This document shows, piece by piece, positions 3,651 through 16,624 of a stretch of 17,386 nt of DNA; positions within the stretch are counted from its first letter, which is position 1, and each line of letters begins with the position of its first letter. A program made the position numbers and the translations under genes. Under the pieces are notes generated by a model that was given only the letters and a program-made list of their open reading frames with translations, searched no databases and was not told where the DNA came from. This stretch comes from Verrucomicrobiota bacterium (lineage in GTDB: Bacteria; Verrucomicrobiota; Verrucomicrobiia; Limisphaerales; CANJXF01): the NCBI GenBank assembly GCA_038214755.1, contig JBBQRQ010000107.1, positions 1 through 17,386 of the forward strand, given 5' to 3'.

Positions 3651-3709
3651 TTTGGAATCTCGCCGAGAAAAACGCGACGTTTGTTGCATGGCGTCACCGC
3701 TGTTGCCGT
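3651..3709 (-). pseudogene. diverged fragment of the uvrD 3' region
   Basis: Aligns to 3889..3946 (49 identities, 9 mismatches, 1 extra base); encodes GNSGDAMQQTSRF/LGEIP versus GGTGDVMQQPSRFLGEIP. Confidence 0.88.
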
Positions 3710-3710
3710 C

Positions 3711-3843
3711 GTAGCGCAGCTTTGCAAGCTGCTGTATCGCAGGTTTTCAACCTGCGGCGGTTCGAGTGTTTCGAGCGCGTCCGATTTTCCAACGTTCTGC
3801 CGGTTGCAAACCGGCGATACGGCAGGATGCAATCCTGCGCTAC
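3711..3843. repeat. GTAG-type REP doublet (inverted pair)
   Basis: gtagcgcagctttgcaagctgctgtatcgcaggttttcaacctgc … gccggttgcaaaccggcgatacggcaggatgcaatcctgcgctac; internal hairpins; the minus-strand GTAG supplies the uvrD TAG stop. Confidence 0.85.
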
Positions 3844-5897
3844 GCGTAAGGATGCATCGGACGCAAATTCCATTCTTCGACAAGGTCTTTTGGAATCTCG
3901 CCGAGAAAACGCGACGGCTGTTGCATCACATCGCCGGTGCCGCCGTGAGTCAGGCGAATTAGCGGATAACTCAAATAAAGTTCATTGCGCGCGCGCGTCA
4001 CCGCGACGTAAAACAACCGGCGCTCTTCTTCGATTCCATCGAGATCTTCCAGCGAGCGCGCCGATGGAAAAAGTCCGTCGCAAAGCATGATGACGAACAC
4101 GACATCGAACTCCAAACCTTTGGCTTGATGAATTGAGGAAAGGCGAAGTTGCTCGGAATCGTTCGTCGGCTGGTTGTCTTCTGCCTCGACGTTGGTGAGC
4201 AAGGCGAGTTGGGTCAAAAGTTCTTCGAGCGTTTTGAATTGCTGCGCGAAGTTGGCGAGTTGTTCCAAGTCTTCGAGGCGTTGTCGGAAGTTGGCGTATT
4301 CCTCCTGCAAATGTTCTTTGTAGCCCGCTTCAATCACGAGCCGGATCATGCGCGAAGCGTTTCCGCGAATTGGCTCTGTTTCCAACTGCGCAATGGTCGC
4401 AACAAATTGCGTCCAAGCCACAGCAGTTTTTTTAGGAACGAAATTCGTGCAACGCTGCAACGCCGTGGCAATCGGGTTTTGAGTTTTGAGTTTTGAGTTT
4501 TGAGTTTCCGATTCTGAATTCAGTCTCCTGTCTCCTGTCTCCTGAAATCTCAGCCACAATTTTTCCGCGCCTTTTCCGCCGATGCCCGGCAGCAAACGAA
4601 CGAGTCGCTTGAACGAAAGCTCATCGCGCGCGTTGGAAATAAATTTCAAAAACGCGGCAACATCCTTCACATGCGCCTGCTCGAAAAACCGAATCCCGCT
4701 CGTAATCGAGAACGGAATATTTCGCCGCGTCAATTCCAGTTGCAGTTCCAACGCGTGAAAATGCGAGCGATACAATACCGCCATTTCGTTGATGTTCCCG
4801 CCTTCTTCGCGCAATTCCAAAACCCGCTGCGCGACGAACTGCGCCTGCTCGCCGCCCGTGTTGCAAGTCACGACGGTGGGTTTGTTCCCCGACTTGCGTG
4901 CGGGCGAAAGATGTTTGACGAATTGATTGATGTTCGCAGCAATCGCGGCATTAGCCACCGCCAGAATTTCCGGCGTGCTGCGATAATTGATTTCAATTTT
5001 GTAAACGTGCGCGCCGGGATAACGATTTGGAAATTCCAAAATATTTTTGAAGTTCGCGCCGCGCCACGAGTAGATGCTCTGCGAATCATCACCGACGACC
5101 ATGACGTTTTTGTGTCGCGCGCCGAGCGTGTCAATCAAGTCGCCCTGAAGTTTGTTCGTGTCCTGATATTCATCGACAAGAATGAATTGAAATCGCCGCT
5201 GATACTGTTCGCGCACCTCTTCATTTTCCTGAAGCAATCTAAGCCAGAGCACGAGGAGATCATCGAAGTCCACGGCGTTGGTGGAGCGTTTGCGCGCGGT
5301 GTAACATTTTTGCAAATCAATAATCTGCGGCGCGAGTTCCAAAAAATAATCGTATTGTTCGGTCAAAATTTCCTGAATGGTTTTTTGCGTGTTGATCGCC
5401 ATCGAAAAAATATCGCCGAGCACGTCCGCCTTTGGAAAGCGCGTGGCTTTGACATCGATTTCCGATTCGCCAATACAGGCGTTCAACAAATCCTTTGCGT
5501 CTTCTCGATCCATGATGGAGAAATCCGATTGATAGCCGAGCAGCCTGGCGTGCCGTCGCAAAACGCGATTGCCAATCGAATGAAACGTTCCGCCCCAAAG
5601 TCCCGCGCCTGCCGGATCGCTGCCAAGTAAATCGCCGACGCGCCGCATCATTTCCTTCGCCGCTTTGTTCGTGAACGTGAGCAGCAGAATTTTGTCGGCG
5701 GGAATGCCTTGTTCGAGCAAATAGGCAACCCGATAAATCAGCGTGCGAGTTTTTCCAGAACCTGCGCCCGCGATGACCAAGGCCGCTCCGGGCGACGCCG
5801 TGACGGCGGCGTGTTGTTGCGGATTCAGTTCCTTTGGATAATCGATTTGCAGTTCGATCGGCGAACTGAACGGCTGCAAAACATAATCACGCGGCAT
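3840..5897 (-). CDS. uvrD: ATP-dependent SF1 DNA helicase, UvrD/PcrA family
   Basis: LNPQQ Q-motif, AGAGSGKT, LLTFTNKAA, VDEYQDTN, VGDDSQSIYSWRGA, NYRS, SIHQAKGLEF, EERRLFYVAVTRA. Confidence 0.96.
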   Translation of the reverse strand: MPRDYVLQPFSSPIELQIDYPKELNPQQHAAVTASPGAALVIAGAGSGKTRTLIYRVAYLLEQGIPADKILLLTFTNKAAKEMMRRVGDLLGSDPAGAGLWGGTFHSIGNRVLRRHARLLGYQSDFSIMDREDAKDLLNACIGESEIDVKATRFPKADVLGDIFSMAINTQKTIQEILTEQYDYFLELAPQIIDLQKCYTARKRSTNAVDFDDLLVLWLRLLQENEEVREQYQRRFQFILVDEYQDTNKLQGDLIDTLGARHKNVMVVGDDSQSIYSWRGANFKNILEFPNRYPGAHVYKIEINYRSTPEILAVANAAIAANINQFVKHLSPARKSGNKPTVVTCNTGGEQAQFVAQRVLELREEGGNINEMAVLYRSHFHALELQLELTRRNIPFSITSGIRFFEQAHVKDVAAFLKFISNARDELSFKRLVRLLPGIGGKGAEKLWLRFQETGDRRLNSESETQNSKLKTQNPIATALQRCTNFVPKKTAVAWTQFVATIAQLETEPIRGNASRMIRLVIEAGYKEHLQEEYANFRQRLEDLEQLANFAQQFKTLEELLTQLALLTNVEAEDNQPTNDSEQLRLSSIHQAKGLEFDVVFVIMLCDGLFPSARSLEDLDGIEEERRLFYVAVTRARNELYLSYPLIRLTHGGTGDVMQQPSRFLGEIPKDLVEEWNLRPMHPYA
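4474..4544. repeat. two heptamer tandem repeats inside uvrD
   Basis: About 5 copies of GAGTTTT (4474-4508) and about 3 of CTGTCTC (4521-4544); encode QETGDRRLNSESETQNSKLKTQNP. Confidence 0.9.
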
Positions 5898-6032
5898 AGA
5901 AAAAATTGAAAAGGGAATTGAGTGGCAGTGAAAGGAAATTCATCTCGAAGAATTCATCAAGTCGGGGAACGACGGTTCGGGCGCGCCCAATCAAAGCTAG
6001 CGAGGATAAACTCCCTTTGCTACGTTTCCGCC

Positions 6033-6248
6033 ATGAAGATCGCCGAAATCGAAAAGGAAGCACTGACCTTAAGCGAGCAAGAGCGCGGACATCTCGCGGC
6101 GGTGTTGCTGGCAACCTTGCCACCGCCGGAAACCGATGTGTCAGACGAAGAAGTCTGGCAACGTGAAGCGGAGATGGAAAGCGGCCGCGTTCAGCCAATT
6201 AGTCATGAAGAATTCGTGCGAGTCGTTGAACGAGACCGCCGCCGATGA
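6033..6248 (+). CDS. putative addiction-module antitoxin (TIGR02574-like)
   Basis: EIEKEALTLSEQERGHLAAVLLATL … WQREAEMESGRVQPISHEEF; preceded by TGcTACGTT, 6 nt, ATG. Confidence 0.85.
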   Translation: MKIAEIEKEALTLSEQERGHLAAVLLATLPPPETDVSDEEVWQREAEMESGRVQPISHEEFVRVVERDRRR

Positions 6249-6301
6249 AGGTGGTTTACAATTCTCGCATTCTGAAAAACGTGTTTAAAAAAAACTTCAC
6301 C

Positions 6302-6628
6302 ATGCAAAACCAATCGGACATTCCTTCCGTCGCAGAGATGCGAGCGCTCCTTCGTCCCTTCTGCGAAAAACACCGCATACGCCGTCTCGACGTGTTTGGT
6401 TCAGCCGCGCGCGGTGACGCAGTGCCCGGCAGCGATGTGGATCTGCTCGTCACGCTGAATGACTCCACGTCGGTGTCCACCGCTCTACTTTTGGAAATGG
6501 CGGGCGAGGCGGAAGAAATTGTCGGATTCCCGGTGGATTTTGTTTTGCGCAGGTCGCTGGAAAAATCTCCCAACCAATTCGCCCGCGACCACATTCTCAG
6601 TTCCGCCGTTTGTCTCTATGGAAACTGA
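6302..6628 (+). CDS. mntA: minimal nucleotidyltransferase (MNT) antitoxin
   Basis: VFGSAARGDAVPGSDVDLLV motif, PVDFV; alternative in-frame start at 6245. Confidence 0.9.
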   Translation: MQNQSDIPSVAEMRALLRPFCEKHRIRRLDVFGSAARGDAVPGSDVDLLVTLNDSTSVSTALLLEMAGEAEEIVGFPVDFVLRRSLEKSPNQFARDHILSSAVCLYGN

Positions 6629-7142
6629 GCAACTCGGTCGCCTGCAAGACATCCTGAACGCCGCCCAGCTTATTTCTTCTTACGTGCAAGGCGTGTCCGA
6701 AGCCGAGTTCATTGACAACTTCGAGAAACAAGATGCTGTGATCCGGCGCATCGAAGTAATTGGCGAAGCGACAGCGCATTTGAATGATGAGACTCGCAGT
6801 GCCATTCCTGATCTCCCGTTCCGCAAGATGCGCGGGATGCGAAACATCGTCGCCCACGACTATGCGAACGTTAACCTAAAAGTGGTGTGGGAAGTGGCAA
6901 CGGTGCATATACCGGATGTCTGCCAACTGCTGGAGAAATTCTTTGCGGAACTGAAATCATCGTGGACTCGATCGGCGCAGGGGGAAACCTCCCACTTCGC
7001 CGCCGCCAACGCGAGAAACGCCAAGTCAGTTTCCAGTCGGCTTCGAACTCCGAGCCGGCAGGAACCGCAAACCGTTTCACGGAATGAGCCTGACGGGTTA
7101 CGACAATCAGAAGGAAAAATACAACACCGTCTGGGTCGATGA
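6618..7142 (+). CDS. hepT: HEPN/DUF86 RNase toxin with an aberrant C-terminal read-through
   Basis: RLQDIL, QDAVIRRIEVIGEA, Rx4H motif RNIVAHDY, VVWEV; family-like sequence ends near 6950 but there is no stop until 7142; start overlaps the MNT end. Confidence 0.88.
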   Translation: METEQLGRLQDILNAAQLISSYVQGVSEAEFIDNFEKQDAVIRRIEVIGEATAHLNDETRSAIPDLPFRKMRGMRNIVAHDYANVNLKVVWEVATVHIPDVCQLLEKFFAELKSSWTRSAQGETSHFAAANARNAKSVSSRLRTPSRQEPQTVSRNEPDGLRQSEGKIQHRLGR

Positions 7143-7362
7143 CATGAGCACCGCCATCCTGACCAGCGAAGGCACCGCCGAGAACGGCGCGAAAGTTCTC
7201 ACCTTCATGGGCAAGATGGATTGCCCGGCGACCGGCGAGAAAGATATGCCGATCAAACAAGTGCTGCGAATCATCAGCCCCAACAAACGCGTCTTCGAAA
7301 TGCACGACGTCAGCAAAGGCGGCGACAACAAGACGATGGAAATCACCTACACGCGGAAGTAA
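7067..7362 (+). pseudogene. 3' fragment of a DUF1579-like gene, copy 1
   Basis: KPFHGMSLTGYDNQKEKYNTVWVDDMST … KTMEITYTRK*; no N-terminal half or signal peptide upstream. Confidence 0.85.
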
Positions 7363-7471
7363 TTGTTGTTTGGGCAAAGCCCAATTTTACGTGAGGTGGC
7401 GTTGCCACGTCGTCCAAATATTTTCTTCCATTGTGTCACCATGCTGTGCGCGTTTTCGACGCAATCGAAGC

Positions 7472-7500
7472 TTGCTGCTCCAACCCGGGCAAACTAACTT
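7472..7500 (+). promoter_or_regulatory. leaderless promoter of the DUF433-PIN operon
   Basis: TTGCTG, 17 nt, TAACTT, 7 nt, ATG 7508. Confidence 0.6.
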
Positions 7501-7507
7501 TTATCCG

Positions 7508-7747
7508 ATGAGTGCCGTAGCTGAAATCACTAGCGCCGTCGGAGGTTTGGTGGTGTCCAATCCCGGTATCCTGGGCGGCACGCCCGTTTTTCGCGGCACA
7601 CGCCTGCCCGTTCAAACTCTTTTCGATTATCTCGCCGACGGCCTGAGTCTGGACTATTTCCTGGAAACCTTTGATGGCGTCACGCGCGAACAGGCCACCG
7701 GTGTCTTGCGTTACGGCTGGAATCGAATTACGGCGGAACTAACTTGA
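7508..7747 (+). CDS. DUF433 family antitoxin
   Basis: NPGILGGTPVFRGTRLPVQTLFDYLADGLSLDYFL..FDGVTREQ. Confidence 0.92.
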   Translation: MSAVAEITSAVGGLVVSNPGILGGTPVFRGTRLPVQTLFDYLADGLSLDYFLETFDGVTREQATGVLRYGWNRITAELT

Positions 7748-8067
7748 TGAAGGTATTGCTGGACGTCTGCACGCCAGTTCAAGTGCGCGACGGACTGCCC
7801 GGCCATGATGTGCATACAGCCGCGCGAATGGGCTGGAGAGAATTGGAAAATGGCGATCTGCTCCGTGCCGCTGAAGAATCCGGATTTTATCTTCTCATCA
7901 TTTGCGACAAGAACATGCGCCATCAGCAGAATCTCAGCGGAAGGAAACTCGCCATTCTCGAACTCTGGACGAACCACCGTCCTACACTGGAAAAGCATTG
8001 GTCCTACATCCGGCAGAATGCCGAATCGATCAAGCCTGGCGAATATCTCCAACTTCAAGCGCCTTGA
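7747..8067 (+). CDS. PIN-like toxin (DUF5615/VapC45-like)
   Basis: MKVLLDVCTP, GW.ELENGDLL.AAE..GF..LII.DKNM; TGATG coupling with DUF433. Confidence 0.88.
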   Translation: MKVLLDVCTPVQVRDGLPGHDVHTAARMGWRELENGDLLRAAEESGFYLLIICDKNMRHQQNLSGRKLAILELWTNHRPTLEKHWSYIRQNAESIKPGEYLQLQAP

Positions 8068-8282
8068 GCACCGCCATTCTGACCAGCGAAGGAACCGCCG
8101 AGAACGGCGTGAAAGTTCTCACCTTCATGGGCAAGATGGATTGCCCGGCGACCGGCGAGAAAGATATGCCGATCAAACAAGTGCTGCGAATCATCAGCCC
8201 CAACAAACGCATCTTCGAAATGCACGACGTGAGCAAAGGCGGCGACAACAAAACGATGGAGATCACCTACACGCGGAAGTAA
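8065..8282 (+). pseudogene. 3' fragment of a DUF1579-like gene, copy 2
   Basis: 211/218 nt identical to 7145..7362. Confidence 0.9.
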
Positions 8283-8334
8283 TTATTGTTCGCGAGTAAA
8301 GTTCAGATGGGCCTTTGGCCGCGTGCCATCGGCG

Positions 8335-8718
8335 TCAGAATTTCAACGGCGCACCCAGCAAATAGGTGCGTGGCAAACGCTGGAATAAACTCAGACGTTC
8401 CTTTTGCAATTTTCCCGCGAGCCAGTGGCGGAAGAAGCGATAGAGACAGTTCCGTCCCGAATTTTCTTTGCGCCGAACGAATTGGCGGAACTGCTGATTG
8501 CGGGCGTAGCAACGCTCCGCGCGTTGGTCTAACCAGTCAGACCATTCGACCGGGAGTTGAACGTCGAGAAAGCAACTGGCTTCGTGAATCACGGAGTCAG
8601 CGATGAGCCACGGCATGAGCAAGGTGTCGCGCTCGATGCCGGGGCGAAGTGAAATACCCCATTCGGCTAATATCTTTGCTTCGCGTTGCGAAACGGAGAG
8701 TTTGCTGGGGAAACGCAT
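8335..8718 (-). CDS. hypothetical protein, about 127 aa
   Basis: Open frame 8335..8862. Its first 48 codons cross a REP, so ATG 8718 (preceded by CATCAT, 6 nt) is preferred. Helical, W/H-rich sequence. Confidence 0.6.
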   Translation of the reverse strand: MRFPSKLSVSQREAKILAEWGISLRPGIERDTLLMPWLIADSVIHEASCFLDVQLPVEWSDWLDQRAERCYARNQQFRQFVRRKENSGRNCLYRFFRHWLAGKLQKERLSLFQRLPRTYLLGAPLKF

Positions 8719-8775
8719 CCGGGAATGATGAAAGACCTTTGGCCGATTCGTCGGCGATTTGATGCGGCATTTTGT

Positions 8776-8832
8776 TGTAGGGCCTTTGTCCTCAAACGCC
8801 ACGCCCCGGCGGCTGGGGACAACCGCCCTGCA
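8776..8832. repeat. second GTAG-type REP doublet
   Basis: tgtagggcctttgtcctcaaacgcc inverted against ggcggctggggacaaccgccctgca. Confidence 0.75.
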
Positions 8833-8858
8833 AGTTTTGGTTTTGCGCGCGTGAGTTT

Positions 8859-11800
8859 TCATTTGTTTCCTTCCACGAGATTTTTTTCTGCTTCGGTCAA
8901 GCCGTAGAGGTCATAGACGAGTTGATCGATCTGCTGGTCGGTGGCGGTGACGGCGTTTTGCAAGGTCTGTTGTTCGGCGGGGCTTTTGGCCGCGCGCAGC
9001 TTGGGCACCAGCACCACCATCTTGTCCACCAACCCAACCAACTTGTCGTGCCGCGCTTGATCGGACTTGGATTTGAGGTCAAGTTTCGGAAATGGTAATT
9101 CGCGAGTCTGTTTGATGATGGTTTTCGGGAAGTCGTCTCTACGAGCAACAAGATTGATTTGGCAAAAATACCAAGAAATCAAATGGCTGTTCAAGATGCT
9201 GAGGACAAAACGAATGTTCGGGAACTCACTCTTTGTAATCAAGCTCTGAACTGACTGGTTCGTTAAGAATTCTTCATCGGTGAACACACCTTGGAGACGA
9301 AACTTTCTGCTGAGTAATTGGCGAAGCAAAATGCGAGGGCCGCGAAAGAACTTTCGCGGCTTTCCGGCTTCGATTTCAGGCGTGTAGTCTTCAAATGCTT
9401 TCGGCCCAAGATCTAAAATATAGCGAAGCAGTTCTCCGTTCCATGCTCTCTTCGGAAACTTGCATTCTTTCGCTGACTTCGGAGCGTAAGTTTCGATGCC
9501 CCGCATTACTTCAACTGCGTCGTCGAGTGTTGCAGGGGCGCTACGAAGTTTTCTCACTAATCCAGCTTCTTCACGAGAGGAAAGAACAAGGAATCCATTG
9601 TCCTTCGATCCAATCCAATCTTCCAAATTGCCGATCTTCTTAAACGGTTCGAATTGTTTTTGGTTCTCTACCTTGTAACGGATTGGGAAGACAACGAGAT
9701 CAACTTCCTTATCTTCCAAATCTCCCCACGATTTTCCATTTTGAAGCCGCTCCGCCGTCACAATAATTGTGTCGATATAAGCACCGTCGAAAACATCATA
9801 CGGCAAAGATACAAACGCAGTTGGTTTGAACTGTTCGGCAAATCGTTCTCGCAACTTTTTCGAAGAAGGCGTCGAAACCCAACCGGATGGAATAATCATT
9901 CCAAATCGTCCTTTAGCACTCAGCAGATTTCCAGACTGCTCGACGAACATGATGAACGAATCAAGGGAGTTGGTGATCGATTTGAATTTAGATCGAATGT
10001 AGCTTTCGTATTCTTTTCCTATGTCCGCACCATAAGGCGGATTGCCAATCACAACGTCGAAGCCGCCGTATTTGAAAATCTTCGGAAACTGAACATCCCA
10101 ATCGAAGGCTTTGATGCGGGTCAGTGCTTCCGCGCTTTCGTTGGAGAACAATTCGTCGCCGCCGAAATCCGACGCGATGAGGGAGTTGCCGTTTTTGATG
10201 TTGTCCTGCAAGGGCGGCAGGCGCGATTTCCTCGGCAAAAAGTTCGCGTTCGCGGGCGAGCGTGGTGCGGTTCGCGTCTTCAAGCATCTTGAGGTAAAGC
10301 GAGAGTTGCGTCACTTCCACCGCTGCCGCGTCGAGGTCCACGCCATAAATATTTTTCGTCAGAATCTCGCGCTTGAGGTTGACGGTGAGATGGACGTCGC
10401 CGGTAGCCTTTTCCACCCAGCAAAGTTCTCTTTTCCGCGCCTTGGGATTGCGCGTGAGGTGACGCTGCCAATGTTCGCAGAGCCGTTCGTAGGCGCGGAT
10501 GAGAAAAGAGCCGGAACCGCAGGCGGGATCAAGCACGGTCAGCTTCAAGGTGTCGGCGGGCTTTCTGTCGTCCACGAGTTTGCCGACGGTTTGCTCGACG
10601 ATGTAATCCACGATGTAGCTGGGCGTGTAATAGACGCCGCCCGCTTTTCGCACTTCGGGTTTCTCCTCGATGATGACGCCGCGTCCGTGTGGGCGGACGA
10701 CTTTGCCGAGGAACCGTTCGTAAATGGTGCCGAGGATTTCGACGGAAATGATGTTGAACAGATAAGGCGATTCTTCCGCGCTGAGTTCACGGATGAAGTC
10801 GGCGAGCCATTCGTCGGAGACAAGCAGTTCTTCGCTGAAATGTTTTTTAAAAAGATTACCGTTGAAGAAAGGAACGTGCGTCGGCGGACGGCGATCAAGC
10901 GCGCGAAAGTGCCGGACGACGGCGTGCCAGAGAGCATCCTTCGGCGCGTTGATGCGACCGAACGCGCCGTAGGCAGGCGGTTCTTCGCGCACAAGAAAGT
11001 CGTGTTGCTTTTCGCGAAGGCCAGCTTCTTTGCCGTAATTTTTGCGCCACGTATCCGCGATGGAATCGAGGCGACCACCCGTATCAATGTCGCGGTCTTC
11101 GCAGATGCGAAGGAAAAGAAGACGATCAAGAATATGTTGCGTCGCTTCATTGAGCCGATTGTCAACGAGAAGATCGTCGCGTTCGTTGCTCTGGATTAAA
11201 TCAGAGGCGAGCGAGCGGCGCGCTTCGTCGAGAGTGTTGAGGAAATCATTGTCAATCGACTTATTCCGGTCGGGCTTGATAAGCCATTGCTGCCGCGCTC
11301 TGCCGGTGCCAGTCGCTTTTTTCGGAAGAGTGTCGATCAATTTGTCGATGCTGCCCGCCGCGATATTTTCATACGCGAGTAAGTCCCAAAGTTCATTGAC
11401 GATGAGCGGATATTGTTTGAAGTGGTAACTTTTCCAGAGGCCAACGTCGGGTAAATCGCGATGCGGCTTTCCGCCGACGATGTAAATTTTGATTTCTTCA
11501 AAGTCGGTGAGTAGCGCGAGGAAAACGCCTTTGTTGTAGGCATAACGCTTGGTTTGAAAAGCGTAGCGGGCATTCAATTCTTCGGCGGGCTTTTTCGCTT
11601 CGCAAACAAAACGGTCATTGGTGTCAGTGCGAAAGAGATAGTCAGCGCGTTTGTGTCCGCCTTCGATGGTGGTGCGGCTCTCGATTTCAACTTCGCGGTG
11701 TTTCGGAATGTGACCAGCGCGATTCTCCAAATCCCAGCCGAGCGCGCGAAAGAATGGATTCAGAAAATCATCGCGGAGCTGCGCTTCGACGTAGCCCTGA

Positions 11801-11889
11801 CTTTTGTGATGATGCAGATTTTTCTCAAAACTTTTAACGAGACGCGCGAGTTCCTCTCTAAAATTTTCGAGGCTGGTTGGTACTGGCAT
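8859..11889 (-). pseudogene. type IIG (Eco57I-like) fused endonuclease/N6-adenine methyltransferase, frameshifted near 10221
   Basis: Nuclease RADYLF…CEAKK; GVYYTP; motif I LDPACGSGSFL; GVDLD; after the shift LPPLQDNIKNGNSL, motif IV GFDVVIGNPPY, TaqI-C-like TRD, DQQIDQLVYDLYGLT. About 1009 aa if repaired. Confidence 0.9.
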
Positions 11890-11931
11890 CTGCCGAATAT
11901 TTTAAAACGTTTGAACAGGCGGAGCGAGTGT

Positions 11932-12195
11932 TTACTTTTTCCCCGCCAATTCCAAAACCGAGGCGCACATCGCGGTGATGGCGGTTTTGATGGTCGGCTC
12001 GACCACCGGCGCGAAGAATGGCGAATGCAGTGACGGCAACGGCTTTCCGGTTTTCTTGCTTTCGGCCACGAGTTCCGGCTTCATCGCGCCAACCCAAAAG
12101 ATGCAGGAGGGAATTTTCTCCGGCGTGCGGCTGTATTCGCTGAAATCTTCGCCACCCATCGTGGGTTTGGATTTGATCACGTTCGTTGCGCCCGT
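11932..12195 (-). pseudogene. 3' fragment of an M20 amidohydrolase gene
   Basis: GATNVIKSKPTMGGEDFSEY…IFWVGA…LPSLHSPFFAP..EPTIKTAITAM; only about 87 C-terminal codons are present. Confidence 0.88.
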
Positions 12196-12225
12196 GCCCC
12201 AGACGATCATTGCGGATGTACGCCT

Positions 12226-13470
12226 TCATAAACAAGCCCAAGGCAGCGCGGTCACTTTGTCGTGCAGACGCAGAGGTCTTACGCAGCGGCAGATGATGTA
12301 ACCGTGTTTCGCTTGCCGGGGATGTTCTTGCAAAAATGTTAGTAGGTGCCGCGCGTCGGTCAGTGATGGATTCTCGGTCCATTTGACTTCGATAGGTGTC
12401 AGCTTGCCAGCTCTGGCGATAATGAAGTCCACCTCGGCGCCGTCTTTGGTGCGCAAGTAATGGAGCGTGCCGCCCCCCAGATATTGCAGGCGTTTCCAAA
12501 GTTCGATGCCCACCCATTGCTCGAAGAGCGGGCCGGGATTCGCACGCACTACGTCGCGTGAGGCCCGCAGGCCAGCAGCGGCGTGGCGCAGTCCGAGGTC
12601 AAACAGGAAAAAGCGCGGCGTCGAAAGAAGATGTTTACGCGGGCTGCCCGACCACGCAGGCACGGTGAAGCCGATAAACATGTCTTCCAGTAACTGATAG
12701 TGGGATTTGATCGTCGGTTGCGAGGGGCCGGATTCTTTTGAGATGCCCGCATAATTGAGAATCTGGCCCGACTCAGTGGCCGCCAGCCGAAGAAAGCGCA
12801 GAAAGGCCGCCCAATCCTTGACCATTGCTTCGCGGCGGATTTCCTCTTCGAGATGAACGACGGCATAGGCTTGGAGCATCTCGTCGCGATCTTCCTCCGG
12901 TGCGGCGCAAACACCCGGCAATTCGCCGAAGGCCAGTCGCGTTTCGAGGTCGGCGGCGGGAAAACGATTCGATGGCGGAGTCTTTTCCTTCCATGAAAAT
13001 TCCAACGGCGACTCCATGCGGCTCGTCGGTTTGGGCTGTGGCGGCCGCTCGGCCAGCGTCAGCGGAAACAAGCGGTGTAAAAAGCTGCGACCCGGCAAAA
13101 GGTTCGCGCCGGTCTGGCGTAATTTCCGCGCGGAACTGCCGCACAGGATAAAACGCCAGCGTTGTTTATCGCGATCGTAAAGATGTTGCACGGCGTCGAA
13201 AATTGCCGGAACGGATTGAGCCTCATCCACGAAAACATAGGCGCCGCCCTTGGTTTCGGGCAACGCGCGACACTCCTGAACCAACCGGTCCGGCTCGCTC
13301 AGATAGCGCGAGCGCGTGGCTGGGTCAGACAGATCAATCTCGAGCACATCAGCGGGAAGCAATTTACGGAGGAGCGTGGACTTGCCGGTCTGCCGCGCGC
13401 CGAACATCAGGTGAACGTAAGGTTTGGCGAGCTTGACCCGTAACGATTCTTCATACCAGCGGGCGAACAT
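12226..13470 (-). CDS. AAA_14 ATPase with DUF4143 and a C-terminal PD-(D/E)xK-like domain
   Basis: Walker A GARQTGKST, Walker B VFVDEAQ, LCGSSA, LPGR, FFLFDLGL, LFEQWV, EVDFII…IEVK. Confidence 0.92.
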   Translation of the reverse strand: MFARWYEESLRVKLAKPYVHLMFGARQTGKSTLLRKLLPADVLEIDLSDPATRSRYLSEPDRLVQECRALPETKGGAYVFVDEAQSVPAIFDAVQHLYDRDKQRWRFILCGSSARKLRQTGANLLPGRSFLHRLFPLTLAERPPQPKPTSRMESPLEFSWKEKTPPSNRFPAADLETRLAFGELPGVCAAPEEDRDEMLQAYAVVHLEEEIRREAMVKDWAAFLRFLRLAATESGQILNYAGISKESGPSQPTIKSHYQLLEDMFIGFTVPAWSGSPRKHLLSTPRFFLFDLGLRHAAAGLRASRDVVRANPGPLFEQWVGIELWKRLQYLGGGTLHYLRTKDGAEVDFIIARAGKLTPIEVKWTENPSLTDARHLLTFLQEHPRQAKHGYIICRCVRPLRLHDKVTALPWACL

Positions 13471-13530
13471 GACTTAAATATGAACCCGCTTTTTTTAAAA
13501 GTCATTTTATATTTCTCGCCTTTTTATAAA
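13471..13530 (-). promoter_or_regulatory. AT-rich leaderless promoter with repeated boxes
   Basis: Minus strand ATGACT, 17 nt, CATATT, 6 nt, ATG; cccgctttttttaaaa and ctcgcctttttataaa recur 30 nt apart. Confidence 0.5.
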
Positions 13531-13609
13531 ACGGGGTTTGGAAAATCCGCCCCTCCGTAACCTGGCAAACTTCATAGCCCCTTAGACATAGCGTTGCAAC
13601 CGGGTTTTA

Positions 13610-13918
13610 GAATCCAGCGGCGAAATGATGGGCAAACCTTTTCAGGGAATGAGCCTGACGGGTTACGATAATCAGAAGGAAAAATACAACACCGTCGGGG
13701 TCGACGACATGAGCACCGCCATTCTGACCACCGAAGGAACTGCCGAGGGCGGCGGGAAAGTTCTCACGTTCACGGGCAAGATGGATTGCCCGGCGACCGG
13801 CGAGAAAGATATGCCGATCAAACAGGTGATTCGAATCATCAGCCCAATGCATCTTCTAAATGCGCGATATGAGCAAAGGCGGCAGAAGACAATAGAGATT
13901 ACCTACCCGCCGAAGCAA
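13610..13918 (+). pseudogene. 3' fragment of a DUF1579-like gene, copy 3 (longest, decayed)
   Basis: ESSGEMMGKPFQGMSLTGYDNQKEK…; indels after IISP and TAA changed to CAA. Confidence 0.88.
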
Positions 13919-14240
13919 TCGACAGCGGAGGAATCAATTAGATCGTTCGGGGTATCGAAAATAGATTCCGTCTTTTCTACAACGAACTGCGTTTGTCCGA
14001 TTCCACCCAGATTTCGTCTTTGGGACTCGACTCAATCTTCGACATCAGCTCAAACTTCGATTCGTTAAAAAACGAGCGCAGAGGTTCGAGCGCGCTAAGT
14101 TTTTAGCGATGTTTTATGGGCGTTGGCCAGCCGGTGATGATAACCATGTGCGCAAGGAAATAATCATGTTCGTCATGCAACTGTACTCTTGCTATTGACA
14201 ATCTTCGGCGTAGCTTCGCGACTTACGCATAGAAAACAGT

Positions 14241-15701
14241 ATGAGCCTGTTCCCATATCTTCTCCTTCCTGACGGTATAGCCGATCAAGCCGCCGCACTC
14301 GGTCATGGGATGCCGCCGAATCTGGACGACGCTCGGTTCATTAATGCAAAGCCCGAAGAGGAAACCGTAGAGGCGACTCTCTCTCAAGTGAATAACGCGG
14401 ATGATGTGGAATTCGTCCGCAATGTGCCGTTGCGCGTGTGTCGCGGCGTTCGGCTACCACTCAAAGCGCCTTCAGGGGCAGAGAATCCAGAGGAGTTCCG
14501 GCTCTACGGCATTGTGGCCGAGCCGAGGGATGAAGTGGATTTTCAGCTCGTCAAGGAATGCGCGTTGGTCGCTGCGGCCTGGCCGCGGTCCCGCCGCTGG
14601 CACGATTACGCTTACTTCAAACCGCCCGCTGACAAAGGCACGGAGCGCAACAATCGTATCTGGCAGGAAGCCCTGCGCTATCGCGGTGGCTGGCGCGAAT
14701 ACCTGCGCGAGGAAGCCACCGTCAATCTTTTCTCCCAGCAGCACGGACTTTGGAAGGCCGCTCTTTTCGATCCAAATCTCGCCGATGAAAACATCGCTCC
14801 AGGACGCGAATATTCCTTGCCGCGCCCGAAGAAAAGAAAAAAACAAAAGGAACAATCGGACATAGTGCCCTCCATTTACTGGGGACTCTGTCATGATCTC
14901 GCGGAATGCACGCGCGTTCTAAAATCCAAGGAGCAGTCGCCACAACTTGACGATCTGAAAGTGGCTACCATTGAAGGCTTCTTGTTCAAGAAATATCTGA
15001 AGGGGCATCCGACGCTCGACCCGCGCTCTAACCCATGGGAGAATCCGAAAACCGGCGAATATCATTTCCACGAAACGGTTCATGAAAGTCTCCGCAACAC
15101 TGAACGCACGGAACAATTCATGAACCACGCTATTCGCGTTGCGTTGGCTGGGCCCGAGGATTTAGATGAGTTTCCAAAGTTCTCAGTTCAGAATGGCCAA
15201 CCCCGTCGACTGGTTGCTACACAAGTTCAATGGATTTACGTGGAACTCATGCTCAACGCACACAAGCGGGCGGTTTATGTGCAATATGGAGTCAAGCCTC
15301 CGCTTGGCACGCGACCACCCACCAATCCAGAACCGAAGGAAGTAGACCAGTCGGCGGCACTCGCCTCGGCAGTGCAGGAGTGGGTGCAATTTTATACTCC
15401 GCAATCGGACAGGGCGCGGAAACTTGCGTTGGCCGAGGCCCTGCAGACACTCGAGTTCCCCGCTCCCGTTGAGTGGGAGGCAACAGGTACCGACTTTATC
15501 GACCCGAACTCGCCCACTAACGAACCAGACGCTCCCGCCGTGATTGATGCCTGCCTTCAAATCGTGACTCTCGCTCGGTTAGGCGTCACCGATCCTCGCA
15601 CTCCGATGTTTCTGAACGAGCTGGCTGGCGATGGTGAACCGCAAGTCCGCCTCGTGGTGGAGTATGCGCTCGCGCAGTTAAGAACGATTCGACAACCGTG
15701 A
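14241..15701 (+). CDS. hypothetical protein, 486 aa, possible HEAT-like C-terminus
   Basis: Long ORF coupled (GTGA) to the next gene; ends FLNELAGDGEPQVRLVVEYALAQL; Pro-rich linker KPPLGTRPPTNPEP. Confidence 0.8.
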   Translation: MSLFPYLLLPDGIADQAAALGHGMPPNLDDARFINAKPEEETVEATLSQVNNADDVEFVRNVPLRVCRGVRLPLKAPSGAENPEEFRLYGIVAEPRDEVDFQLVKECALVAAAWPRSRRWHDYAYFKPPADKGTERNNRIWQEALRYRGGWREYLREEATVNLFSQQHGLWKAALFDPNLADENIAPGREYSLPRPKKRKKQKEQSDIVPSIYWGLCHDLAECTRVLKSKEQSPQLDDLKVATIEGFLFKKYLKGHPTLDPRSNPWENPKTGEYHFHETVHESLRNTERTEQFMNHAIRVALAGPEDLDEFPKFSVQNGQPRRLVATQVQWIYVELMLNAHKRAVYVQYGVKPPLGTRPPTNPEPKEVDQSAALASAVQEWVQFYTPQSDRARKLALAEALQTLEFPAPVEWEATGTDFIDPNSPTNEPDAPAVIDACLQIVTLARLGVTDPRTPMFLNELAGDGEPQVRLVVEYALAQLRTIRQP

Positions 15702-16624
15702 GAGATTCGCCTGTGAACAGTGCTGTAGCTGAGAATCCAAAGAAAAGCGACTCCCCAGGCGATCGACGTTGGAGGTATGGTTTCGCTGGCTTGGTCCGCG
15801 TCAGTTGGATCAGTCCCGATGGAGTCGATGAGATTCAATATGGCTCCGGCGTGTTGGTAACACGCACACTTATTATCACGGCCAAACACGTTGTTCACAA
15901 CGGCGGGAAAAAGGCAACTCCCAGAGATTTCGTAGTTCGTCAAGATTTGTCGAACTCGACGGTGGCGTGTGAGCGCATTGAGCGCCACGCCGACCTCGAT
16001 CTCGCGCTGCTCTGGCTCAGCGAAGAGTTGCCTGCCCCGAATATCGTCTGGCTCAATGGAGGTGTTCCGTTTGACTGTTTGCCCGAAGGCGTTTTCTGGC
16101 GCGCGTTCGGCTATCCCGCCGAAAGCGGCAAAGCTCGCGCTTGTCAGCAAGTGTTATCCGATCCCCACCCGTCACCGGGTTCGGATGCTTCGGGCAGTCT
16201 GGTACGCATCCAAATCGAAAAGGGACTTCCATATGGTTACAGCGGTGGGCCGGTTTTTTTGGAGAGCGGGACGCAGCGGATGTTCGTCGGCATCGGCAGG
16301 CTAGGCGGCGATGGTGCGTCCGTTACGGGAGTTCTGCCCTCGGACGAGATACTGAAATTTCTTGAGGAACACGAGAAAGCAGTGCGGCAACACATGCGAA
16401 CCGAGTCTGCCGCTCATTTTTTTGCCGCCGCTCACCGACGACATCTCACCAAGGTTTCAATCGCAATCGCAGGCGTCGGGTTAATCCTTATTGCCGTTCT
16501 TTTGTCGACGGCGCGTCTTGGCGCTCCGCGACCACAACAGGTCACGAATTCAGTTATTGAGTCCCCGGACATACCTGTAGTAACTAAACCAGAATCCAGA
16601 TGGACCAATGTCTTCGGTCCATAG
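15698..16624 (+). CDS. trypsin-like serine protease with a C-terminal transmembrane helix
   Basis: GSGVLV, ITAKHVV (His), DLALL (Asp), FGYP, GYSGGPV (Ser); TM VSIAIAGVGLILIAVLL. Confidence 0.9.
   Translation: MRDSPVNSAVAENPKKSDSPGDRRWRYGFAGLVRVSWISPDGVDEIQYGSGVLVTRTLIITAKHVVHNGGKKATPRDFVVRQDLSNSTVACERIERHADLDLALLWLSEELPAPNIVWLNGGVPFDCLPEGVFWRAFGYPAESGKARACQQVLSDPHPSPGSDASGSLVRIQIEKGLPYGYSGGPVFLESGTQRMFVGIGRLGGDGASVTGVLPSDEILKFLEEHEKAVRQHMRTESAAHFFAAAHRRHLTKVSIAIAGVGLILIAVLLSTARLGAPRPQQVTNSVIESPDIPVVTKPESRWTNVFGP

Follow-up and report, generated by a model that had tools for sequence, protein, structure and literature searches.

Headless gene ends lying between small modules in this Verrucomicrobiota genome (G000) are real scars of module entry. 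Such gene-end scars are unusually common here, with at least 54 of them at 51 anchors, and dozens of housekeeping genes with no relation to one another serve as anchors. The best explanation, and in our judgment a probable one, is insertion of DNA from relatives through a single anchor gene. It is supported by the polarity of the fragments, by diverged functional alleles, by scar starts that vary and lack a motif, and by empty, filled, and stacked states among congeners. The original prediction, made from a 17,386-nucleotide stretch of one contig (the window), had held that kin DNA enters at one anchor, that the old gene end is pushed outward, and that the event can repeat; this much stood, but its choice of homology-facilitated illegitimate recombination (HFIR) as the specific route did not. 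Comparative sequence evidence points to what would be ordinary recombination with kin DNA and no new cassette system.

In the mechanism that we propose, a piece of kin DNA, presumably acquired by natural transformation, would contain a stretch of some ordinary gene (the anchor) together with the small module lying directly beside it in the donor. Pairing is confined to the anchor, since neither gene order nor the far flank matches. The donor gene end would complete the resident gene, with the cargo next to it, and an illegitimate join back into the anchor would strand the resident's old end beyond the cargo. Cargo lying upstream of a gene would give the mirror image, leaving an old 5′ end. Since the live gene survives, even essential genes are usable as anchors. 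Repetition would stack modules, the newest adjoining the anchor; later trimming may follow, and TA cargo may be kept by addiction or phage defense. The genome contains ComEC, DprA, and Ku genes.

A genome-wide scan, with multi-contig repeats filtered out, returned 188 fragments, 80 of them local and 108 not. Among the local ones, 39 are 3′ ends downstream of, and on the same strand as, their own housekeeping gene and 15 are 5′ ends upstream on the same strand, whereas none is an upstream 3′ end and one is a same-strand downstream 5′ end (polarity p 3e-15). An independent alignment scan found same-strand downstream 3′ ends in 54 of 2832 genes and three on the opposite strand, against same-strand upstream 3′ ends in 6 of 2797 and no downstream mid-gene pieces. 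The pattern is polar; the prediction that only 3′ ends would occur fails on the mirror class of upstream 5′ ends. That this mirror class might be specific to the lineage was considered and dropped (22/2797 vs. 3/631 in outgroups, p 0.6).

The scars differ from the live genes mainly at silent sites. Across the pairs, pS is 0.30 and pN is 0.048 (pN/pS 0.16), third codon positions hold 588 of the 907 differences, and pN is below pS in 50 of 54 pairs. Because the differences are mostly silent, scar and live gene are two alleles of different lineages and not a gene and its decayed local copy. The repeat would then represent donor and recipient alleles, not a copy of the recipient's target, a reading that has to allow for later allelic replacement. 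Of 13 scars tested against other species, only 3 are clearly nearer another species' allele than their own gene, 3 more are so by one point, and 1 is a tie. We also considered whether identity falls with distance from the anchor, but it is not monotonic (98, 89, 96, and 87 at thrS; 83 and 94 at gyrB).

Allelic replacement is central to an alternative in which a true target duplication, induced by a break as proposed for RM genes, was followed by replacement of the live allele through homologous recombination with relatives. This sequence of events would likewise make the differences silent. It matches the footprint described by Furuta et al. 2010 (PMC2853133), in whose account many repeats are 90%–100% identical, and it accords with the mosaic anchor alleles seen among congeners (thrS ends 65%–89% identical) and with the remaining 6 of the 13 scars, which are nearest their own gene. 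We nevertheless think it unlikely. Identity between scar and live gene has a median of 89%, only 1 of 54 pairs reaches ≥99%, and no pair is identical; long ungapped scars of 400–570 bases, in which the differences are almost all silent, would need full-length replacement each time; and most of the cargo is TA, not DNA-cutting.

Among congeners, empty, filled, and stacked states occur at pyc, an aldehyde dehydrogenase gene, and ilvD; G001, like the other relatives compared a species-level one, has the empty site, with one copy, at all three. At pyc, G004 has a cassette without a scar, G005 has the cassette with a scar, and G000 has new cargo and a scar ahead of the cassette found in those two. 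Identity at pyc is 90%–92% among congeners, against 46%–60% for the far-flank MFS genes. One module was found behind two different anchors. The comparison covers congeners only and contains no strain-level donor/recipient pairs.

The joins are tight. The direct repeats measure 50–605 bp and the cargo 129–9012 bp; in 30 of 39 cases homology ends ≤10 bases from the stop codon, which holds even for pairs that are 95%–97% identical. The median distance from the inner join to the stop of co-oriented cargo is 32 bases. Random DNA ends do not account for such joins without trimming or selection. At the two joins with both parents known, the join falls inside the 5′ part of a second gene, with overlaps of 9 and 3 bases. 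Joins tight to cargo gene ends would also be expected if a large merodiploid or tandem duplication with kin DNA had formed and deletions had then left only the addictive module and the outer stub, and deletions are indeed visible: 22 of 54 scars are gapped, and the pyc scar of G000 is in two pieces with an internal deletion. This history is still quite improbable. Among the copies compared, from which those covering >70% of a gene had been filtered out, none showed a nearly complete second gene copy together with long donor DNA, as an intermediate would. In Escherichia coli, circularization and a single crossover gave partial anchor duplications in one step in 56 of 60 clones, with lengths of 109–950 bp in the 14 sequenced, according to the experiments described by Amarir-Bouhram et al. 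2011 (PMC3240628).

The scars begin at variable points, the four thrS pieces each at a different one. The joins share no 5- to 7-mer motif, no repeat recurs at them, and no link to REP elements was seen; repeats are in fact depleted at joins (3/54 vs. 620/3005 gene ends). Integrons and gene-targeting integrative elements are known for polar stacking of TA/defense cassettes and for leaving the target gene intact beside a second copy of its end, whereas here there is no integrase, no fixed attachment site, and dozens of targets. No integrase or transposase family was found in the 150 of 172 cargo ORFs that were scanned. A genome search that covered tyrosine recombinases gave five matches (PF00589), which could be taken to favor an integrase, serine recombinase, or REP-associated transposase acting in trans to move nonautonomous cassettes into gene ends. 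However, all five matches are more than 10 kb away from any fragment, leaving no IntI beside an array, and 51 different anchors, the range of repeat lengths, three start points in the DUF1579 gene alone, and the motif-free, repeat-poor joins make such an agent very unlikely. An integrase with a fixed att site, the explanation that the original prediction had set against its own, was not found among the ORFs and joins scanned.

The window shows these features on a small scale. Its left border is a uvrD-type helicase gene (3840..5897, minus strand; Pfam), whose upstream neighbor varies among six congeners. On the plus strand follow a putative addiction-module component of 71 aa (6033..6248; PF09720 at E 1e-4, just below the cut-off), an MNT nucleotidyltransferase antitoxin (6245..6628; PF01909 and PF18765; PADLOC PDC-S09), and a HEPN/HepT-like toxin (6618..7142; PF01934), whose domain ends at ∼6940 and whose frame continues without a stop into the first DUF1579 3′ end (7067..7362, the last ∼97 codons including the stop). 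A DUF433 gene (PF04255) with a 106-aa partner comes next (7508..8067), and the TGA of the partner forms the first three bases of the second DUF1579 3′ end (8065..8282), which is 96.5% identical to the first, so that the two ends are a direct repeat bracketing this pair. The minus strand then carries a 175-aa ORF without a family (8335..8862), a type IIG RM gene (8859..11889; PADLOC REase_MTase_IIG), an M20 amidohydrolase 3′ end (11932..12193, the last 87 codons including the stop), and an AAA_14-DUF4143 protein (12226..13470; PADLOC candidate PDC-S01). Back on the plus strand are the third DUF1579 3′ end (13610..13918, start approximate; 86% identical to the first and decayed) and a 486-aa protein without a family followed by a trypsin-like protease (14241..16624); the 486-aa protein gave weak HEAT-repeat leads and nothing else. 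The spacers at 6930–7080, 7360–7510, 13470–13640, and 13920–14240 have no match in G000 or the fetched loci.

This order and these strands, with three DUF1579 ends and one M20 end between TA/RM modules, are as predicted, and no integrase or transposase family appears in the 20 window ORFs scanned, nor any tRNA in the window. The addiction-module gene and the 175-aa ORF, which adjoins the RM gene in G005 as well, are additions to the predicted list. Other details needed correction. DUF433 was rightly named, but the proposed PIN gene matches no Pfam, NCBIfam, or PADLOC model, so its PIN-like label comes from its DUF433 partner. The RM gene is of type IIG as stated but is split by a frameshift near 10240–10280, whereas its G005 homolog is one intact 1097-aa frame behind mannonate dehydratase. 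The first DUF1579 end and the M20 end do run to their native stop; the third DUF1579 end has an altered stop and has lost sequence in two small deletions. Several modules had been credited with their own promoters, but a consensus scan gave 3 sites vs. 4.7 expected, and promoters and terminators are at chance level.

Full-length parents were expected for both fragments, and one was recovered. At the DNA level, the M20 end shares 92% identity with a complete amidohydrolase gene at C25:648–1976, which sits 648 bases from a contig end bearing an IS-like repeat; C25 may yet join the right end of the window, although no end sequence is common to the two. Full-length DUF1579 relatives have ∼205 aa. 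Counted on a homolog of 205 aa, the scars begin near codons 101, 109, and 134, so the attachment point is not fixed. A search with six full-length homologs found no matching 5′ half in G000, and the nearest DUF1579 gene there is a 35%–40% paralog on C48. Across 23 public loci and four relatives, DUF1579 has no second piece and, at those mapped, stands beside neither uvrD nor M20; for the DUF1579 and M20 junctions of the window itself, species-level relatives yielded no empty site. A further set of genomes contained no look-alike of this stretch. Contrary to expectation, neither full-length anchor lies within the window, so its history is a reconstruction. DUF1579 may have been the plus-strand anchor, with the third end the oldest and the second recent, and the first end is probably the beheaded former anchor, its head lost later. 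M20 would have anchored AAA-DUF4143 ahead of the RM module, and the two anchors would once have stood face to face.

Logan unitigs of run X1, possibly the sample from which the assembly came, bridge all inner junctions at an even depth of 18–27, as the original prediction required, except that they break inside the identical stretch common to the first two DUF1579 ends, so the order across that stretch is not proven. Despite this break and the possible shared source, a misassembly or strain chimera of the metagenome is extremely improbable, given the bridged junctions, copies that are 78%–99% alike and never identical, and the same thrS cassette junction in the independent genomes G000, G003, and G007.

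As to the chemistry of single-anchor entry, end-joining to a circle followed by a single crossover is a serious though tentative candidate, at somewhat less than even odds, and an HFIR-type join inside the anchor is possible but doubtful. Classical HFIR is no more likely than circle and crossover. The evidence does not support HFIR as the particular route because, as described in PMC3240628, classical HFIR couples insertion with deletion of recipient DNA and leaves no scar, whereas circle and crossover gave partial anchor duplications; the scar sites here are duplications without the insert-sized recipient deletion that the HFIR product requires. The scarless cassette at pyc in G004 would fit such a deletion but is no proof of it. 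The processes described there, with one homologous end and one illegitimate join with overlaps of 0–10 bases, would resemble the one proposed here, but the experiments used a laboratory substrate and E. coli conjugation. Both that paper and Kirchberger et al. 2017 (PMC5361080) describe HFIR as rare.

At 19 of the 51 anchors the cargo includes TA families, and most cargo is TA or without an assigned family. The predicted enrichment was modest: TA loci lie near a scar more often than genes at large (14/85 vs. 227/4240, p 2e-4) but not significantly more often than small genes (159/1367, p 0.22). To call the arrays a defense stack was an overstatement, as cargo is mostly TA, the RM gene of the window is disrupted, and of 85 DUF433/PIN/ParE loci, 77 do not fall within a detected scar interval.

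Parts of this picture have precedents, which the original prediction had not credited. Insertion with long target duplication (ILTD) reportedly goes back to Nobusato et al. in 2000. In the account of Furuta et al. (PMC2853133), ILTD concerns RM genes, its mechanism is unknown, and the repeat is read as a target copy made at insertion, perhaps via a DNA break; neither "synonymous" nor "donor" appears in the main text. The likeness is close: no mobile gene, an insert of <20 kb, long variable direct repeats (24–393 bp among the cases listed) that in many cases run across a start or stop site without disrupting the gene, host species that are for the most part competent, and empty sites in relatives. 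Our repeats, too, are >30 bp, variable, not tRNA, and not high-copy. However, here at least 54 scars lie in one genome, the cargo is mostly TA, sites are stacked, the window's IIG gene lies frameshifted in a larger block and not as R and M genes in an insert, and the repeats are two diverged alleles instead of a target copy. HFIR-built, integron-like arrays have been proposed for T6SS effector–immunity arrays of Vibrio cholerae and Rhs/CDI orphan arrays (PMC5361080), which likewise have a conserved anchor upstream, displaced older 3′ parts behind it, an explicit comparison with integrons, and the lack of an integrase. As presented there, those are toxin-delivery loci only, in which the displaced part is an effector end with its immunity gene, whereas in this genome the anchors are housekeeping genes, their cargo has no relation to them, and there is also a mirror class of 5′ ends. 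Among open (non-subscription) papers, as judged from search listings, none on TA modules with gene-end scars was found. What is new here is the scale, the polarity, the TA cargo, and the evidence that the "duplication" consists of one donor and one recipient copy.

Finally, the results bear on how chromosomal TA/RM modules arrive when they carry no mobility genes, and on ILTD, for which no mechanism has been established since 2000. More than 50 scars in one genome permit statistics that are impossible with single cases, and the silent-site bias, by implying two alleles, turns the matter into a testable question on host recombination (RecA, DprA, and Ku). A broader and more speculative reading, doubtful as a whole, is that housekeeping gene ends are a main integrase-free landing system for TA/defense modules in this lineage. 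A module between gene end and scar could be excised as a circle that takes one gene end with it, and a single crossover would then insert it into a relative, so that cassettes would cycle between species via host recombination and end-joining alone, and ILTD in general would be donor plus recipient, without duplication. The scars date and order insertions, and they provide a genome-wide marker for new TA/defense candidates behind essential genes.

Partial gene copies in G000, the genome assembly containing the window, are polar in their placement. Genes of ≥450 bases, drawn from the 4321 of our own codon-model caller (gene starts are therefore approximate), were aligned to this 5.1-Mb assembly (175 contigs, completeness 97%, contamination 1%). 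Partial copies of ≥50 bases and ≥78% identity were kept, excluding stretches matching ≥3 other contigs, copies within long co-oriented genes, and copies that spanned >70% of a gene or sat at a contig end. The resulting 206 matches merged into 188 fragments, 80 of them within 25 kb of the parent gene. Among these local fragments, 39 were 3′ ends lying downstream of, and co-oriented with, the parent; 15 were co-oriented 5′ ends lying upstream; 18 were internal pieces downstream, mostly from near the 3′ end; and the others were internal pieces upstream (3), a 5′ end downstream (1), or on the opposite strand (4). The 108 nonlocal fragments (32 3′, 20 5′, 56 internal) may include several that are local across gaps, parent and fragment both lying near contig ends. 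In a second method with built-in nulls, 90 bases of gene end, start, or middle were aligned to 4 kb on each side. Co-oriented 3′ ends were found downstream in 54/2832 cases, versus 3 in the opposite orientation and 6/2797 upstream; co-oriented 5′ ends numbered 22 upstream and 6 downstream, and co-oriented middles downstream 0. A few of these entries may be false positives from PEP-CTERM paralogue arrays. The pattern of a partial gene end (scar) left beyond inserted DNA (cargo) that adjoins the full resident gene (anchor) is real and exceeds chance. The original reading described 3′ ends only; a 5′ class exists as well. In sampled DNA, the downstream 3′ class was found for 1/274 genes in G005, 1/410 in G001, and 0/685 in five genomes of other families (p = 1e-5 versus G000); the 5′ class in the same five (3/631) did not differ from G000. 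Thus, G000 is unusually rich in the 3′ class, with the proviso that related genomes are not independent of one another and that only part of their DNA was sampled.

The anchors include gatA, purB, purC, accC, pyc, transketolase, gyrB, pheT, ilvD, acs, nadA, serS, thrS, lysS, gltX, ftsK, mutS, lipA, apt, deoC, galK, and nuoE. Scars have a median length of 108 bases and cargos of about 870 bases. Pfam matches among the 150 of 172 cargo ORFs scanned (the other 22 are short, mostly alternative or scar frames) include HigB, DUF433/DUF5615, HicAB, YafQ/RelB, PemK, ParE, PIN, Phd, MNT/HEPN, TumE, Gp49, ORF6N, a CAP12 TIR protein, and Wadjet. The cargo includes TA families at 19 of 51 strict anchors, or at 24 if DUFs that we take to be TA-associated are counted. 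Anchor–scar intervals make up 2.0% of the genome and hold 8 of 85 DUF433, PIN, and ParE loci (p = 3e-4), the remaining 77 lying outside; against small genes only, TA enrichment near scars was not significant (p = 0.22). Cargo faces both ways: among the 3′ cases, the nearest gene has the same orientation in 22 and the opposite one in 13. One interval (C52, L047) contains the entire Wadjet cluster jetABCD together with an ORF6N gene, and another (C42, L042) a CAP12/Pycsar TIR gene immediately following thrS. ORF6N-domain genes recur as cargo (L017, L028, L047), alone behind purB or in front of another gene. The window also has a miniature scar (3651–3689 and 3710–3844): 39 bases from close to the 3′ end of uvrD recur downstream of this gene, and a long inverted repeat lies between the two, so that the cargo is no more than a hairpin. 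Similarly small cargos of 129–179 bases occur on contigs C23, C85, and C98.

By our estimate, neutral decay of a local duplicate next to a gene under selection would give a pN/pS near 0.5. The 54 polar scars instead gave pS 0.30 and pN 0.048 (ratio 0.16), with 588 of 907 differences from the live gene falling on third positions; pN was below pS in 50 of 54. By these sequence comparisons, scar and live gene appear to be two alleles. Their identity (median 89%, ≥95% in 8 pairs, 99% in 1) is similar to that of gene ends between sampled species (77–92% for pyc and aldehyde dehydrogenase). A direct allele test on 13 scars was mixed: 3 were clearly and 3 marginally closer to another species' gene, 1 was tied, and 6 were closer to their own gene. 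Donors are therefore mostly unsampled kin, or live genes were replaced later.

Congeners show empty, filled, and stacked sites. At pyc, G001 has an MFS gene next; G004 has a two-gene cassette (weak Phd match, no scar) in between; G005 has the cassette of G004, an 83-base pyc scar, and then an MFS gene; and in G000, new cargo of 3.9 kb is followed by the scar and then by the cassette of G004 and G005. Thus, the old end keeps its old neighbor, and the newest cargo adjoins the anchor. Because the MFS genes share only 46–60% identity, versus 90–92% for pyc, the far flank has little homology, and the empty site is of the same family, not the same allele. The aldehyde dehydrogenase site is empty in G001 and two-tiered in G005, one tier with PemK; ilvD is empty in G001 and stacked in G004 and G007; and one thrS cassette with an identical junction occurs in G000, G003, and G007. 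In G005, ilvD apparently consists of three pieces and has large gaps within it (C178, L242). The thrS of G007, G004, and G001 (L095, L099, L098/L216) is apparently two ORFs, the break coinciding with a variable insertion loop in the catalytic domain: an N-part of about 300–313 aa ending in a stop and a C-part (367 aa in G001) with its own start, separated by kilobases of cargo (TA genes, a C5 methylase, a Kelch/NHL protein). In G000 and G005, thrS is a single ORF of 673–695 aa, and the thrS search found no second full copy. The gene upstream of uvrD (L073–L078) varies among congeners where identifiable, downstream neighbors being kept in two, so gene order in the genus appears heavily shuffled.

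An integrase is an unlikely explanation, in line with the original reading: the scanned cargo ORFs contained no integrase or transposase, and no fragment occurs within 10 kb of any of the five tyrosine-recombinase genes of G000. The joins of 54 scars had no 5- to 7-mer in common above chance, and high-copy repeats were rarer there than at gene ends (3/54 versus 620/3005). Misassembly of the window, which is the complete contig C107, is countered by Logan unitigs of run X1, which bridge all inner junctions at depths of 18–27 and break in repeats only; since X1 is possibly the source sample, the bridging rules out a crude join without amounting to independent support. Single-anchor recombination with relatives' DNA is the probable mechanism. 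At two joins, the 5′ part of another gene leads into the scar across 9 and 3 shared bases, as expected if donor DNA ended within its next gene. Two regularities go beyond what this mechanism explains: in 30 of 39 cases homology stops within 10 bases of the stop codon, and the median distance from a co-oriented cargo stop to the inner join that follows it is 32 bases, versus a 95-base median gap genome-wide. The route originally proposed, homology-facilitated illegitimate recombination (HFIR), survives as a single-anchor event, but HFIR itself fits no better than a circle with a single crossover. Classical HFIR couples insertion with deletion; 56 of 60 E. coli one-anchor recombinants instead had partial anchor duplications, attributed to trimming, circle ligation, and single crossover (PMC3240628). 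G000 encodes ComEC, DprA, and Ku. Judged by scar size and by Ku being encoded, circle formation plus crossover is no worse a match than HFIR, and strain-level alleles are needed to separate the two.

The module order originally described for the window is real. Its three DUF1579 3′ ends (7067–7362, 8065–8282, and about 13610–13918), aligned to a 205-aa homologue, begin near codons 109, 134, and 101 and, as originally described, reach the native end; the second and third are 96.5% and 86% identical to the first, and their relatives are mostly Verrucomicrobiota records. Of the full-length parents sought, the amidohydrolase was found on contig C25, 92% identical to the M20 3′ end (12193–11932, minus strand), and a DUF1579 parent is absent from the G000 assembly. 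Behind the full M20 gene, C25 carries (L032:1-645) a decayed ORF, by eye presumably DUF4062-like, and an IS-like end also present on C3 and C121. The RM gene is frameshifted, the HEPN gene has no stop codon where its domain ends, the supposed PIN partner of DUF433 matched no family, and a promoter scan gave the modules' supposed own promoters no signal above chance. The RM gene and its 175-aa neighbor are intact in G005 behind mannonate dehydratase, the DNA match ending at window position 11929, 3 bases from the M20 stop. An AAA-DUF4143 paralogue (71% identical; C2:84623-85867, L070) adjoins a more distant one, and G000 has at least five copies of this family. In our reconstruction, DUF1579 would have served as anchor for the plus-strand tiers before losing its 5′ part. 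AAA-DUF4143 would have entered ahead of the RM module with M20 as its anchor, at a time when the two anchors faced each other.

This footprint is the "insertion with long target duplication" (ILTD), described for RM genes, with variable repeats often across a start or stop site, mostly in competent species, and with the mechanism left open (PMC2853133). For T6SS and Rhs loci, integron-like arrays that HFIR builds and in which old 3′ parts are displaced have been proposed (PMC5361080). HFIR has also been suggested for small variable segments (PMC2884548), and another report cites ILTD only by analogy with RM systems (PMC2654758). Integron-like stacking as originally envisaged has been proposed before. 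The literature searched, with subscription journals outside its coverage, yielded no paper that counts polar fragments across a genome, reports TA cargo, or applies a silent-site test. Whereas ILTD has been described for RM genes, the scars of G000 accompany TA cargo and show a genome-wide polarity and a silent-site bias. They are a known, mechanistically open kind of insertion rather than a new cassette system.
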